Shown one piece after another: positions 8,609 to 35,278 of a DNA stretch of 64,000 nucleotides. Under the pieces are notes generated by a model. It worked only from the letters and a program-made list of their open reading frames with translations, searched no databases and had not been told where the DNA came from. This stretch comes from a virus. Both the position numbers and the translations under genes were made by a program. Where the stretch lies: the IMG/VR virus record IMGVR_UViG_3300048854_000232, positions 32,618 through 96,617 of that record, one strand, 5' to 3'. How positions within the stretch are numbered: the first letter of the stretch is position 1; each line of letters starts with the position of its first letter.

Positions 8609-9127
8609 ATGACAACCCCCACTCTGCCGGTGTTCTTGATGGACTACGTGTACGACGTGGTCCAGGAAGCCTGCCTGCGCAACATCCTGCACCCGCTGAA
8701 CGGCGAGATCATTCCGGAAGTCCTGGAATTCGTGATCGCCTCGGCCCGGGTGAACCGCTACGAGCTGGTTCGCACACCCGAACAGCTGCACCGGCTCTGG
8801 GATGACATCCGTGCTAAGCAGGAAGTGGTCGATTTCATCCTGAACCTGACGATCGACGTGCGCCTGCGGTTGGATTCGGGTCCGCTGCCCTGGGATGAGC
8901 TCGTCACCCGGCTCCTGACGAGCTACACGCAATTCCGAGGCACGCATTCGGGGATTGATGAGGTGCTGGTCGAACGGCTTCCCTCGCTCGTCAAGGGCGG
9001 TGTCAGACAACCCGCCTCGATCGCCTCGATCAACGACCTGTACACCGACAATCCGTGGTTCGTCATGATGGTGCTGATGCATCATGCAGGCGTCGCGCGG
9101 CGGGTGGCTACGCAAGCCAACAAGTAA
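8609..9127 (+). CDS. Hypothetical protein
   Basis: 172 aa, AAGG RBS, ends at a terminator. Confidence 0.8.
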   Translation: MTTPTLPVFLMDYVYDVVQEACLRNILHPLNGEIIPEVLEFVIASARVNRYELVRTPEQLHRLWDDIRAKQEVVDFILNLTIDVRLRLDSGPLPWDELVTRLLTSYTQFRGTHSGIDEVLVERLPSLVKGGVRQPASIASINDLYTDNPWFVMMVLMHHAGVARRVATQANK

Positions 9128-28507: not shown

Positions 28508-29963
28508 ATGAATACTGCCATGCTTCCCTTCAACGTCGAGATCATGAACATCGACCGTAATAAGGTTGCTCACCTGAAGCCGGTGACCAGCCTGGACTAT
28601 TACGAGAACGTCGGTGGCGACCTCCACGGGGACGGTTTGTTCTCGGTCGAGATCTTCGGCCGGGTCGGTGAGGAAAGCCGCGACAAGCGCTTCTCCTACA
28701 TCGATCTCAAGACCCAGATTTTCCACCCGGTCATCTACCAAGCGCTGTGCAAGCTGAAGGGTCTCTACCAAGGCATCCTGGCAGGCACGGCTTTCGCGAC
28801 CTGGGACCCGATCACCAAGGACTTCAAAGCCGCCGACGAATTGGTCGGAGAGACCGGCTATGCGTTCTTCATCTCTCACTGGAAAGAGATCGCCTTTGCT
28901 GGCAACAAGTCCGGCATCCGTGACGCTCGCATCCAGCTGGTCGAGAAGTACCGTGACCGTGCGTTGTGCGACAAGATCCTGGTCATGCCTGCGGGCTTGC
29001 GGGATATCGAAGTCGGCGACGACGGCCGGACGGTCGTGGGTGATATCAACACCTTCTACCGCAAGATCATCTCGATCAGCAAAACCATCACCACCACCGA
29101 ACACGGTGCGCAGTCCCGTACGCTGAACCTGCCGCGGCATTTGCTCCAGCAGACCTTCAACGAGATCTACGGCACGATCGAGACCATGCTCACGGGCAAG
29201 TACGGCTTCCTGCAGTCCAAGTGGGGTAGCCGGCGTATCTTCAACGGTACGCGAAACGTGATCACGGCGATGGATACCTCCACCGAAGTGCTGGGTGGCC
29301 GCAATGCCCCCAAGTATACAGACACGATCCTGGGCTTGTACCAGGCGATCAAGTCCCTCGGCGCGGTGTCGGTGCATCTGCTCAAGACCGGTTACCTGGC
29401 TCAGATCTTTGCCCCGGGCAACGGTTACGCCAATCTGGTGGACCCGACGACCTACAAGGGCGTGCAGGTCAAGCTTGCTTCGGATACCTTTGACCGTTAC
29501 ACGACGGTGGAAGGGCTGGAGAAAGTCATCTCCAGTTACGGCGAGACCACGCTGCGCGCAAAACCGGTAATGGCCGATGGCTATTACCTGGCGCTTATCT
29601 ATGCCGGTCCGGACCGCACCTTCAAGGTCTTCTCCTCGATCGATGAGTTGCCCGAAGGGTTCGATCGCAAATTCGTCCGTCCCATCAACCTGGTCGAACT
29701 GATCTACCTCTCCGGTTACCGGAAGTGGAATGATTACGTAGGCTTCGTCACCCGCTACCCGGTCACCGGTACGGGCAGCTGCTACCCCTCCACCTTGTAC
29801 GTCAAGACCACGATCGTGGGCGAGATGCGCAGGGAATTGGATGAGGAGTGGCGGGTCTCGGACGAAGATGCGGTCGCGCTGGAATTCCCCACCTACGAGA
29901 CGCTGGCCTATCTGGATTCCCAGGTGGTCTCCAGTGCACGTCTTAAAGGTTTGGGTGCTGACT
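28508..29963 (+). CDS. rpoC: Virion RNA polymerase beta' subunit (phiKZ gp180-like), exon 1
   Basis: RpoC-like GLFSVEIFG, ILVMPAGLRD, GRRIFNGTRNVIT and RYP motifs; ends ...ARLKGLGAD-T. Alternative GTG start at 28493. Confidence 0.9.
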
Positions 29964-30361
29964 TAACGCTTCACTAGGTCCTTGTGGGGGTAACCCTACT
30001 CGAAAAACTCTTCTAATTGCTGGAAACTCTCGTTTGAACATGGCGCGCGACAACGTAATCCGAAAGGGTCAGCGTGAGCGCATGAGAAGCCGTCATGTAG
30101 AGACAATCAGCAGCCAAGTCCCTAACGCTCGAACGTGTCGTCCTCCACGGGAAAGTTACGGGAAAGGTTCAACGACTAGGCGAAAGCCGTAGGGTCAAGT
30201 GACCCGAAATGGAGAGCATCCGTGAGCTGCTGGATAGCGCTGCGGATGAAGATATAGTCTGGCCATGCAGGGTGACCTGCAGCTGTTTGTGTTGCCTGCC
30301 CCTCCCTCCCCTCGGGCAGCACGAGCGCGCCGGTTCTAACGAAACCGGTGGAACACACGCG
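29964..30361 (+). ncRNA. Group I self-splicing intron (IA-type, 398 nt, no ORF) in the RNAP beta' DFDGD codons
   Basis: P AATTGCTGGAAA 30015-30026, Q AATCAGCAG 30105-30113, R GTTCAACGACTA 30167-30178, S AAGATATAGTC 30249-30259; exon GACU pairs with intron GGUC (U-G at splice site); terminal G30361; splicing restores GAC TTC GAC GGC GAT. Confidence 0.93.
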
Positions 30362-30548: not shown

Positions 30549-33500
30549 ATGATGATCCTTTACCCCCAGTACTACCGACAGCACGGCATTCGTCGTGCCG
30601 TGCAGTTGGTGGCCCCGACCTTGAGTCGGATGGAAACGCTGGACCTGCCCCAGGGCAGCATCCTGCACTTTGTCGCCCAAGACGAGTCGCAGTACGGCAT
30701 GCCCCAGGACGACTACCTCCTTCGCCATGTTTCGCGGATGATGTACGTCGACCATGTCAAGGAGCTGGGCGATAACAAAGGCAACCCGCGTCCGACGCGG
30801 CAGCCGCCCAACCAGATGATCCGGGACTACCAGCGGAAGTACCGCCGTACGCGTGCGCTGACCAACATCGATGCCCTGCTGCGCGATCCGCGCACGCTGG
30901 TGATCGAGAACTATGCGCTGCTGCCGCATCTCTTCCGTTACACGACCAGCTACTTCCGCAACTACTACAAGTGGTGGAACATCCAAGCCGCCATGTGGGC
31001 GCGGGTGGGCGAGCTGGACGTGAAGGCCGATCGTCAGCAGTACCTGGAATGCTACCTACCTACCATCCTTCCGTCGTTGGGCCAACTCCGCAAGGGCGAG
31101 GCCTACACCAACCGGTCGACCATTGCCGCGTTCGCACAGAACGAGTCGATGTTCATCCTGGAAGTGTGGAAGTGGCTGGGTGAGCACCGTGAGACCTCCG
31201 TGCTGGCCAAGGCGGGTCCTCGCAACCTGTCGAAGATGAACCTCATCTGGACCCAGTCCGATAAGTGGTTCATCATGAACCTGGGTCTGCTGGACCAGTG
31301 GCGTCGTCCCTCGGAGACCGAGCTCAAAGCCGGTGCTGATCCCAAGCACGGGATTGTCGATCCGCAGATGATGCAGAAGCGCTTCTTGCGTGCTCTGATG
31401 TTCCTCTTCGAATCGGGTACGGTCGCCGGTGGTGAAGCGAAGGCTGTGGCGGAGGCGACGATCGTTGCCCCGACCGCCGATGGCACGACCAAGGAGCCCA
31501 CGGGCGAGGTCAAGGCGGTCGACGTGCCGCTGAAGATCGCGATGCCGCATCCGGACGATCCGAACAAGACCAAGCTGATCACGATCAAGCCGGGCCTGAA
31601 CATCGATAACTTCCCGGACCATCCGGTGGAAGAGACCGCGGACAACATGCGGTTGATCGATGAGGCCATCACCAAGGACCTGGACGCCCTGGCTCATCTG
31701 CACCTGGATCAGGTCGAAGATGAGCTGACCGGTGAAGACGGTGAGCCGCCGGTGGACGTGCCCCAGGCGATGATCAACTATGTCGCTGAGCAGCGTACCC
31801 TGGAATCGGCCATCATGGCCAAGGCGGATGCCCTGGTCGATGACGGTCTGCTCTCGGGTGCGGAGTATCGCCGGTTGATGGCGGTCTCCTCGGCGTATAA
31901 GAAGATCCCCGATCCGTACGGCTCCGGTCAGACCCTGGAAGTCCAGGCGCAGATCGATGTGCAGAACCTGGTGATCTCCGATGCCCCGTCGATTCCCGAT
32001 AGCGTCAGCATCGTGGACAAGTCGATGCTGAAGACCAGCTTGGCACACTTTGACACCAAGTACGTCAACGAGGTCATGCCCAAGGACATCACCAACATGG
32101 TGCTGGGTATCCAGCACGGTGGCGTGGGTGTTACCGGTTACCAGATCGAACACATCGAAGACGCACTCAACAGTTACACCTCGCACACGGTCAACCTGGT
32201 GCCGGTCACGGGCAAGCCCTCGACCATCCGCTTCCGGTTGCCCAAGGTCGAGGACGACGGCACGTTCCGTGCCGGTGGCGTGCGCTACCGTCTGCGTAAG
32301 CAGCGCGGTGACATGCCCATTCGTAAGCTCTCCCCCGAGAAAGTGGCCCTGACCAGTTACTACGCGAAGATCTTCGTTTCCCGTAGCGATAAGCAGGTGC
32401 ACAACTACCCGGGTTGGCTGACCAACCAGATCGCTGCACGCGGTATGGATCCGACCAACGAGGACGTGGACCACCTGATGGTCTCGGACGTGTTCAAGCG
32501 GGAATACCGCACGCCACGTCTGTACTCGATCCTGGCCGCACGCTTCCGCTCCTTTGAGCTGCCCAAGTACGACATGCAGTTCTTCCTGGACTACGCCGCT
32601 CGTTATAAGCAGTTCGGCGAAGAGCGGGTCAAGGCAGCTGAGAAGTCGGGCATGACGGTGATCGGTCGTTCGGGCGGTTACAGTCGGTCGGGTGGTAAGG
32701 ATGCCTACAGCCTAATCCTGGTCGACCAGAACGATGTGCTTTACCAGACCAACTTCGACAACGACGAAGAGATCGCGGTGCGTGGGACCATGGAATCGCT
32801 GCTCGAGTTGGATCGCCGCAAGGCACCAGCTGAAGTGGCGGTACTGAAGGTCTTCAATAAGCTCGTCCCGGTCGGCATGTTCTTGGCCTACCAGATGGGT
32901 CTGTCGCGCCTGTTCGAAGTACTCGGTGTGAATCCCCGTCGCGTGCCCTCGGGTGAACGTGTCAACCTCTCCGATGACGAGTACGTCCTGAAGTTCCAGG
33001 ACGAGCAGTTGGTGTTCCCCAAGGAACATCGTCTGGCCGCTCTGATCCTGGCCGGTATCGGCACCTACGAGAACGCCACTAGCAACTACCCGGTACATCT
33101 GTTCGATCGCAAAGACATCTACCTCAACGTGCTGGATCAGGCGGGGGTGGGTGCCAGGTACTTGCGTGAAATGGATCTGATGGTCGAGATGTTTGTCGAT
33201 CCCATCACCCGCGAACTGCTGGAAGACATGCACGAGCCGCTGGACTTCATTGGTCTGGTCATCCGGGCCTGTGAGCTGCTGCAGACCGATTGGTCGCCCG
33301 ATGAAACCGACATGGCCTTCATGCGCATCAAGGGCTACGAGCGTATGGCCGGTGCGGTGTATTCCGAATTGGTGAACGCGGTCCGTGGTCATCGTGCCCG
33401 CAGCTCCTCGAACGCCTCGATCGAACTGTCGCCCTACGCCGTGTGGACTGCCGTTGCGCAGGACTCCTCGGTCAAGCTGGTCGAAGACTCCAACCCGGTG

Positions 33501-33782
33501 CACAACCTCAAAGAACGTGAAGAGCTCACCTACTCCGGTACCGGTGGTCGCTCGGCACGCTCGATGGTCAGCGCCACGCGTGTGTATCACCCCAACGACA
33601 TGGGCGTCATCTCGGAGGCCACCAAGGACTCCGCTGACGTGGCGATCACCACGTTCACCACGGCCGATCCGAACCTGAAGAACCTGCGCGGTGTCACCGG
33701 CCGGTACGAGAAGGGGAACCTGGGTCCGGCCTCGTTGCTGTCTACCTCGGCGCTCCTGGCCCCGGCAGCGACCCGTGATGAT
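30549..33782 (+). CDS. rpoB: Virion RNA polymerase beta subunit (phiKZ gp178-like), exon 1
   Basis: 1078 codons; RpoB-like GTGGRSARSM and YHPNDMGVISEAT; ends TRDD. Confidence 0.9.
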
Positions 33783-34150
33783 TAAAGAGTTAGAAGCAAC
33801 CGCTTTTAACTCTACGGTCCGCTTACATGGAAACGTGTAAGTGAACTCTCCTTAATTGCTGGGACCTCCTTAGAGCCTCACTACCACTGCGAGTCGAAAG
33901 ACAAAGCGACGGTTTGAAAAGTGTGAGGATTGGACAATCAGCAGCGAAGCCCTGTTAATCGGGGAACGTTCATCGACTAAGGCTTTATCAGCCGGTACCC
34001 GTCAAGCGATGGGGAAATGGGAGACACCCTTTAAGCACTCTGATCTAGACAGAAATTGCCAAGGGTGAAGATATAGTCAGCTCTGCATGGAAACATGCAG
34101 CTGCTCCGCAAGGAGCGGGGTAGGGTTTGCGGCCCTGCCTGAACATAAGG
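33783..34150 (+). ncRNA. Group I self-splicing intron (IA-type, 368 nt, no ORF) in RNAP beta
   Basis: P AATTGCTGGGA 33854-33864, Q AATCAGCAG 33936-33944, R GTTCATCGACTA 33968-33979, S AAGATATAGTC 34068-34078; 5' exon ends in U, intron ends in G; splicing gives in-frame DD|PKRVNFISIQ. Confidence 0.92.
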
Positions 34151-35278
34151 CCAAAACGTGTCAACTTCATCTCCATCCAGCAGTCGGCTGGTACCTTCGC
34201 TAAGGGCTACGTGCCCTCGCCGCTGCGTACCGGTTACGAGCAGATCCTGGCCCACCGTACCGATGACCTCTACGCCTACACGGCCAAGAAGCCCGGTAAG
34301 ATCACCCGCCTCACGGCGCAAGCGATCACGGTGACCCACGAGGACGGTTCGGTCAAGACGATCGAGCTGGGTCGTCGCTTTGGTGTGGCGGCAGGTACGA
34401 TTCTCCCCCATGCGGTGGAGACCCGACTCAAAGTCGGTGATGAGGTGAAGCTGGGTGATATCGTTGCCTACAACCGTAACTACTTCCAGATTGACCCGCT
34501 GAACCCCAAGCAGGTCGTGTGGAAGGCTGGTGTCTTGGTCAAGACTGCGATCATGGAATCGACCGATACATTGGAAGACTCCTCCGCTATCTCGGAAGAG
34601 GTGGCGGGCCTCATGGAAACGCAGATCACCAAGATCCGCGATGTCCAGGTGGCGTTCGATCAGTCCGTACGCAATCTGCTGCCGGTGGGAACCCCGGTGG
34701 AAGTCGAGAGTATTTTATGTACAATCGAAGATGCGGTCACGGCGCAGAGCAATCTGCTGGATAGCGACTCGCTGGATACCTTGCGATTGATCTCGGCCAA
34801 TACCCCTCGGGCGAAAGTCAAGGGCGTGATCGAGAAGATCGAGGTGTTCTACAACGGAGACATCGACGAGCTGTCGCCTTCGTTGCAGGAATTGGCACAA
34901 GCTTCCGACCGTGAACGTAAACGCACTGCCCGTGAACTGGGCAAGACCTACACCCCAGGCCGCGTGGATGACTCGCTGCGTGTGGATGGCAACCCGCTGC
35001 CGCCGGATAACCTGGTGGTGCGGATGTACATCACCAGCGATATGTCCGCTGGCGTGGGTGACAAGGGCGTGTTCGGCAACCAGCTGAAGACGATCCATGG
35101 TCGAGTGATGTCGGGCAAGAACGAGACCGAGTCTGGTCAGCCCATCGGTGCGATCTTCGGTTACCAGAGTATCTCCGACCGTATTGTGTATTCGCCGGAA
35201 ATCATCGGTACCACCAATACGCTTCTCAAGATCATTTCCAAACGCATGGTCGCCGCTTACTACGGGAAACTGAAATGA
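34151..35278 (+). CDS. rpoB: Virion RNA polymerase beta subunit, exon 2
   Basis: Contains EDSSAIS and VGDKGVFGNQLKT (RpoB GDK motif); spliced beta is 1453 aa. Confidence 0.9.
   Translation, partial: PKRVNFISIQQSAGTFAKGYVPSPLRTGYEQILAHRTDDLYAYTAKKPGKITRLTAQAITVTHEDGSVKTIELGRRFGVAAGTILPHAVETRLKVGDEVKLGDIVAYNRNYFQIDPLNPKQVVWKAGVLVKTAIMESTDTLEDSSAISEEVAGLMETQITKIRDVQVAFDQSVRNLLPVGTPVEVESILCTIEDAVTAQSNLLDSDSLDTLRLISANTPRAKVKGVIEKIEVFYNGDIDELSPSLQELAQASDRERKRTARELGKTYTPGRVDDSLRVDGNPLPPDNLVVRMYITSDMSAGVGDKGVFGNQLKTIHGRVMSGKNETESGQPIGAIFGYQSISDRIVYSPEIIGTTNTLLKIISKRMVAAYYGKLK

Follow-up and report, generated by a model that had tools for sequence, protein, structure and literature searches.

The td intron of phage T4 (subgroup IA2) lies in a conserved enzyme site, starts with an in-frame UAA, has a guide sequence that abuts P2, and contains P7.1 and P7.2. 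In phage PhiPA3, the virion RNA polymerase (vRNAP) beta gene gp211/209 contains a group I intron carrying the HNH endonuclease gp210, which cleaves phiKZ gp178, an intron-less gene, at the corresponding position, and mutations that allow escape fall at D1072 (Birkholz et al., bioRxiv 10.1101/2023.09.30.560319; Science 2024, PMC11620839). PhiKZ D1072 corresponds to E. coli RpoB D675, and in relatives the vRNAP beta gene is essential (Birkholz et al., bioRxiv 10.1101/2023.09.30.560319). In most group I introns, an in-frame stop directly past the 5' junction keeps ribosomes out, and translation of the upstream exon can aid the splicing of phage group I introns (Edgell, Chalamcharla, and Belfort, PMC3073962). 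Nucleus-forming phages uncouple transcription from translation (PMC12908238).

A 64,000-nt stretch (the window) of the 294.6-kb virus record IMGVR_UViG_3300048854_000232 was analyzed. Positions 33783-34150 on the plus strand are a 368-nt group I intron, which scores 89.8 bits with the Rfam model RF00028 (cut-off 50 bits, E 1.2e-21). The alignment spans 33797-34100 and model positions 1-253, which is the full model length. No ORF of at least 20 aa was found wholly within the intron; a 126-aa antisense ORF at 34031-34411 had no Pfam match and was taken as spurious. The predicted intron fold has an energy of -141 kcal/mol (z -5.9 versus shuffled copies). Further RF00028 matches were found at 29954-30282 in the window and, as a third, outside the window in the same record. 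A preliminary description of this DNA, made by reading the sequence, had proposed an ORF-less group I intron at 33783-34150, and its boundaries are all as read: GAT GAT (33777-33782), TAA (33783-85), an end in ...CATAAGG, and CCA AAA CGT from 34151. It had also singled out a strong hairpin near the 5' splice site. With high confidence, the locus is interpreted here as an endonuclease-less IA-type intron in the vRNAP beta gene of an uncultured phiKZ-like, chimallin-encoding jumbo phage, with the hairpin as an extension of P1. The features, all on the plus strand, are as follows.

30549..33782, plus: exon 1 of the gp178-like vRNAP beta gene, 1078 codons, ending ...RDD; PHROG 3148 positions 1-1050; aligned to RTH11, LucasX, and phiKZ gp178.
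33783..34150, plus: ORF-less group I intron (RF00028); junction fixed by gap-free protein alignments; compensatory changes in 44/60 pairs.
33783..33785, plus: in-frame UAA, intron codon 1; U33783 also pairs with G33816 in P1.
33780..33783, plus: P1 5' strand, exon G-A-U and intron U; 5' splice site after U33782.
33786..33813, plus: P1 apical extension, 12 bp with an AACC loop, 33786-97 with 33802-13.
33816..33819, plus: internal guide sequence GGUC, P1 3' strand; (A/G)GUC 5' of P2 in relatives.
33822..33841, plus: P2 hairpin, 8 bp, GAAA tetraloop, -8.3 kcal/mol; compensatory changes at 8/8 pairs among relatives.
33847..34078, plus: catalytic core, from the Rfam alignment, RNAalifold pair counts, and coordinate mapping.
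33847-52/34019-24, plus: P3, placed by hand from complementarity.
33857-62/33938-43, plus: P4, core helix.
33867-81/33923-34, plus: P5 and P5a, with an apical extension.
33944-53/33961-69, plus: P6, core helix.
33975-79/34074-78, plus: P7, core helix.
33980-94, plus: P7.1, hairpin with compensatory changes.
33998-34013, plus: P7.2, hairpin with compensatory changes.
34026-31/34061-66, plus: P8, placed by hand from complementarity.
34083-34100, plus: P9, peripheral 3' hairpin, GAAA loop.
34103-16, plus: P9.1, peripheral 3' hairpin, GCAA loop; compensatory changes among relatives.
34119-39, plus: P9.2, peripheral 3' hairpin; compensatory changes among relatives.
34150, plus: terminal G (omega-G), 3' splice site; the sole position giving ...DD/PK... 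with U at -1 and G at the intron end.
34151..35278, plus: exon 2, 375 codons and stop, beginning PKRVNF; PHROG 3148 positions 1051-1422; tblastn matches to phiKZ gp178, PhiPA3 gp209, and others.

Here and below, a slash within residues or bases marks a splice junction. The exon 1 frame is that of ORF 30549..33785, which closes at the TAA at 33783-85, and the exon 2 frame is that of the ORF ending at 35278. Joining 33782 to 34151 gave a product of 1453 aa with no internal stops. Xanthomonas phages RTH11 and LucasX have this gene uninterrupted, and the product aligned to theirs with 55% identity and without gaps at ...RDD/PKRVNF, and the junction was also gap-free against the intron-less metagenomic relatives L007, L008, L011, L029, L032, and L034. 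The junction is unique to the base, since the flanking bases differ at both splice sites, the 5' site must follow a U, and the intron must end in G.

Gene identity was based on PHROGs, synteny, and homology to phiKZ and PhiPA3. PHROG 3148 is split between the two exons, and the order of genes in the window (a 2307-aa lytic-transglycosylase protein on the opposite strand, a gp180-like gene, the beta gene, a gp177-like gene, a virion structural protein, and a head protease) is syntenic with phiKZ gp181/180/178/177/176/175. The spliced product aligns with phiKZ gp178 (1451 aa), with D1078 opposite phiKZ D1072. A Pfam search of either exon gave no match, and a PDB sequence search gave a weak RpoB match for exon 2 only (E 0.005). 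The interrupted gene is the vRNAP beta gene, an ortholog of phiKZ gp178. The preliminary description had named the same gene, with which PHROG 3148, gene order, and the gp178 alignment agree, and had put its product at 1453 aa, rightly close to the size of gp178. It had also called this intron the second in the gene; it is the second in the vRNAP gene pair, but the first lies in the neighboring gp180-like gene, a different ORF. That first intron occupies 29964-30361, and joining at a 5' site after 29963 and an end at G30361 rebuilds ...GAD-F-DGD.

The gp180-like genes of RTH11 (L001:398-721) and LucasX (L002:460-798) also contain a group I intron above the Rfam threshold at the place of the first intron of the window. 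Both are unannotated, and exon 2 is annotated as a separate small "hypothetical protein." In L014 (~8736-9069), a further member of this intron family (guide GGUC, exon GAU/) interrupts the NAD/GFDGD catalytic motif of an RNA polymerase beta-prime gene, one base off the first-intron site of the window.

The beta-gene intron is inserted behind the second residue of a conserved Asp pair (phiKZ D1072), which is the site of the PhiPA3 gp210 intron; the PhiPA3 sequence has the same boundary (...GAT GAT/.../ATG AAA CGC GTC). Same-site introns were found in nine other sequences. Five are ORF-less (phage EL, between ORF186 and ORF187; HPP-Temi; and contigs L017, L035, and L036), and four carry an HNH gene (PhiPA3, Serratia phage Haymo, and contigs L006 and L030), in each case as an ORF between the 5' splice site and the guide. 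The gp210-type trait is absent here: no intron-encoded HNH endonuclease is present, and no match to the L030 endonuclease was found in the genome. Two HNH_3-domain ORFs of ~260 aa lie far off in the genome, at G000:C1:223525-223683 (-) and 187602-187721 (+). L006, L033, and L009/L010 make use of a second site close by, four codons downstream.

Compared with the PhiPA3 gp210 intron, the gene is orthologous, the insertion is identical (...DD/(P/M)KRV), the core is homologous, and an AGUC or GGUC guide lies directly 5' of a GNRA-capped P2. The PhiPA3 intron is 1352 nt long with the HNH gene between splice site and guide, whereas a 28-nt hairpin stands there in this endonuclease-free intron, and an in-frame stop is not reached in the PhiPA3 intron until 17 codons in, as against codon 1 here. 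The closest relative found is L030 (ERZ1066118 contig, 695-2000), an intron at the same site whose first nine bases (UAAAGAGUU) are identical. It shares AACUC...GGUCCGC before P2, and with the ORF taken out its core shows 75% identity; unlike the intron described here, it has a 313-aa HNH_3/NUMOD ORF in the apex of the P1 extension, running through the guide into the P2 loop. The introns of EL (ORF186/ORF187) and HPP-Temi (CDS0210/CDS0212) are likewise ORF-less, with an in-frame UGA start and an extended P1 stem-loop upstream of AGUC or GGUC, but the extension sequence is unrelated, and neither record has an intron annotated there. The T4 td intron differs in its host gene, in having its endonuclease gene in the P6 loop (PMC3073962) and not in P1, and in belonging to a phage without a nucleus. 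Viral contigs were also scanned for the 15-mer GATGATTAAAGAGTT, which gave 120 chance matches, 0 of them followed by intron core motifs.

Several further observations were made on introns in these genes. The L006 contig (IMG/VR 3300036546_000129) has tandem group I introns in one beta gene (992-2499), with an 11-nt mini-exon, CCAAAACGAGT (2109-2119), between them; the first, HNH-bearing, is at the DD/ site, and the second (2120-2499) is without P2. L033 has an intron at the second site only. In L009/L010 (~2170-2500), a second-site intron follows ...PKRV, GU/; an in-frame 3' site preceded by G was not found there, the base before the expected exon 2 being A. The intron of Aeromonas phage CF8 lies a few bases from the second site. 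The EL and CF8 introns have clear core motifs, yet score below the Rfam gathering score. In HPP-Temi, CDS0211 (L025:746-865) is annotated as a "hypothetical protein" inside the intron. Hairpins that pair ACUCC with a GGAG Shine-Dalgarno sequence upstream of the endonuclease start were seen at L030:715-760, L024:4690-4720, L028:1165-1205, and L006:1015-1055; by analogy, these hairpins of HNH-bearing relatives look like the ribosome-binding-site sequestration of I-TevI.

All core helices of the intron are complementary. Among the six ORF-less same-site introns, RNAalifold gave compensatory changes in 44 of the 60 consensus pairs, covering P2, P4, P5/P5a, P6, P7, P7.1, P7.2, P9.1, and P9.2. Subgroup IA introns are distinguished by two extra hairpins, P7.1 and P7.2, inserted between P7 and the second (3') strand of P3. 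Having both, the intron would belong to subgroup IA of the T4 td type, and is tentatively labeled IA2-like. No convincing P10 helix was found, the canonical register giving only C34151-G33816. A P10 drawn by RNAalifold between GGUC and GG/CC at the 3' splice site (columns 52-55 with 448-451) was rejected; its register is non-canonical, and it occurs in about half of the sequences. The intron is predicted to be self-splicing and to join the exons. When the intron was searched with blastn against phages, matches were to the core only, from intron position 59 on, and no homolog of the hairpin sequence was found in named phages. The core at 33849-34031 shares ~81% identity with an intron carried by the 73-kb Pseudomonas phages FBPa1, VL1, YH6, LP14, and Pa_WF01, which suggests that intron cores may have been exchanged between unrelated phage groups.

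The guide sequence was located by comparing the 5' splice site with the bases just upstream of P2 in 11 related introns (seven same-site and four in other genes). In 10 of 10 introns with exon GAU/, (A/G)GUC directly 5' of P2 pairs with the exon GAU (G-3:C, A-2:U, U-1.G). The splice-site U.G wobble is present in 11/11, here as U33782.G33817, and the +1 pair is U.G in five, U-A in five, and C-G in one. The pairs of P1 in the window are G33780-C33819, A33781-U33818, U33782.G33817, and U33783.G33816, a short helix of three exon pairs and one intron pair; in L022, P1 is lengthened to seven pairs (GGUGAUU with AGUCACC). The L017 and L035 introns have only 4-8 nt between the splice site and AGUC, so that (A/G)GUC is the only possible P1 there. 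Since exon GAU and guide GUC do not vary across the family, no covariation can be seen in the three pairs that P1 makes with the exon; P1 is supported by its position, by the +1 pair, and by the lengthened helices of L022 and Haymo. By comparison of these introns, the guide is GGUC at 33816-19, directly upstream of P2 and downstream of the hairpin. The hairpin and P2 alone have a predicted energy of -25.1 kcal/mol, which becomes -26.9 kcal/mol with P1 (P1 adds -1.8 kcal/mol), and P1 reaches a pair probability of 0.84 when 40 nt of upstream exon are included. If the exon is cut to 12 nt, pairing of exon CCGU (33773-76) with ACGG (33814-17) is predicted to beat P1. This mispairing was rejected as a competitor; it is gone once the exon context is 40 nt, and the relatives do not conserve it.

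The hairpin at 33787-33812 has 11 pairs and an energy of -13.1 kcal/mol (z -7.3), and 0 of 200 shuffled sequences were as stable, so the hairpin of the preliminary description is indeed a strong one. With A33786-U33813, the stem has 12 pairs, 11 of the 12 being Watson-Crick. Lying between the splice site and the guide, it sits in the apex of P1. In the predicted fold, the hairpin and P1 coexist, stacked across a 2x2 internal loop. The stem base AGUUR:YAACU is common to L030 and L036. In L030, a stem of GAGUUGA with UCAACUC matches the hairpin base, with an A-U to G-C compensatory change at 33792:33807, and the 313-aa HNH_3/NUMOD gene stands where the window has six more pairs and the AACC loop. 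In L036, AGUUA:UAACU is kept with a six-base loop. Judging from this shared stem, the hairpin base is homologous to that of these relatives; the P1 extensions of EL and HPP-Temi are analogous, with unrelated sequence. The most likely interpretation of the hairpin is an ordinary apical extension of P1 and not a switch competing with P1. Because sister introns hold an HNH gene at this place, the hairpin can be seen as the closed form of an endonuclease-gene site, and would be either the closed-up landing site of an HNH gene or the scar of its loss.

It is very unlikely that a decaying relic with impaired splicing, or a pseudogene, is what is seen here, with the hairpin as meaningless debris of an endonuclease-gene deletion. 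The endonuclease gene is absent, and such introns are expected to decay or be lost; P1 is also short, and the P10 search came up empty. Set against this, both exons are intact and conserved in a gene that is essential in relatives, the Rfam score is among the highest across the relatives examined, the core helices retain their complementarity, a stem with a single non-Watson-Crick pair is unlike debris, and the genome completeness estimate is 100%.

The preliminary description had placed the guide within the hairpin, at GUUA (33789-92), pairing with exon UGAU, and had proposed that the hairpin competes with P1 and makes splicing conditional. The hairpin would then sequester the guide, and splicing would occur only once it is melted, for example by a ribosome or at a set time in infection. 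Such a helix can be drawn with four pairs, including two wobbles, and U33782.G33789 would be acceptable as the wobble at the splice site; HPP-Temi has a similar complementarity between the exon and GUUAUUG near the splice site, and translation of the upstream exon affects the splicing of phage group I introns (PMC3073962). The drawn helix is, however, unfavorable by +1.2 kcal/mol relative to unpaired RNA, and its pair probability is 0.000, as the hairpin (~ -15.7 kcal/mol) must be opened for it to form. The same-site introns L017, L035, and EL have no equivalent sequence, and the guide of the family abuts P2, as in T4 td. The hairpin base is conserved in L030 with an HNH gene in its apex, which fits a P1 extension and not a sequestering element. 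L017 and L035 lack the hairpin altogether, and an HNH gene takes its place in L030, PhiPA3, Haymo, and L006. Overlap of hairpin and guide was thus not borne out: the guide lies downstream of the hairpin and is not shared with it, and the two helices stack instead of competing. The sequestration model is regarded as even less probable than a relic.

An in-frame UAA or UGA opens 9 of the 10 same-site introns, the exception being PhiPA3, and the UAA at 33783-85 is the first intron codon, as had been noted, in frame with ORF 30549..33785. As such stops are described as common in the review (PMC3073962), the intron-opening stop is an ordinary feature. A homolog of chimallin, the phage nuclear shell protein, is encoded outside the window at G000:C1:115709-117388 (E 2.6e-40 versus phiKZ gp54), so transcription probably takes place apart from ribosomes, as in nucleus-forming phages (PMC12908238), which further weakens a translation-coupled switch and makes ribosome-gated splicing less likely here. 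The third group I intron of the genome (118831-119195) closely follows the chimallin gene, mirroring phiKZ gp54/gp55/gp56(HNH).

Least probable of all is that the hairpin is P2 and the 33822-41 hairpin P2.1, with the guide elsewhere, for although two hairpins in succession before P3 recall introns with P2 and P2.1, relatives without the hairpin retain a single GNRA-capped P2, and only UAA(A) separates splice site and hairpin, leaving no room for a guide.

In the preferred interpretation, with the hairpin as a P1 extension, pairing of exon G-A-U and intron U with GGUC (33816-19) would present the 5' splice site, with U33782.G33817 marking the cut. The 12-bp hairpin would stack on the short P1 across the 2x2 internal loop and may help by holding together the splice site and the guide, which are 34 nt apart. 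In sister introns, the same apex is a loop of 4-8 nt, another stem, or an HNH homing-endonuclease gene. The opening UAA would act as a stop keeping ribosomes off the ribozyme, and splicing would restore the 1453-aa beta subunit.

No new regulatory mechanism is revealed by the intron or the hairpin. The comparison flags annotation errors: the beta gene of EL and HPP-Temi is recorded as two CDSs with the intron unannotated, and the gp180-like gene of RTH11 and LucasX is split likewise. A broader reading, which we consider possible but doubtful, is that the intron is no neutral passenger but is retained as a standing immunity allele. Because it divides the target of gp210-type intron endonucleases, it would shield the virion RNA polymerase gene from co-infecting nucleus-forming phages; the sister intron in the neighboring DFDGD motif would do likewise, and the P1 hairpin would be a selected, stabilized scar of endonuclease-gene loss. 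A more speculative variant is that mispairing of CCGU (33773-76) with ACGG (33814-17) times splicing in the ribosome-free phage nucleus. The insertion site was already published, and the intron adds an endonuclease-free member to the lineage that PhiPA3 uses against phiKZ. Jumbo phages of soil, sewage, and water have introns time and again at this one codon boundary of the virion RNA polymerase gene, with and without an endonuclease. The series, with a tiny P1 loop at one end, a full HNH gene at the other, and a closed hairpin in between, may provide a natural ladder for the entry and exit of homing-endonuclease genes in group I introns.
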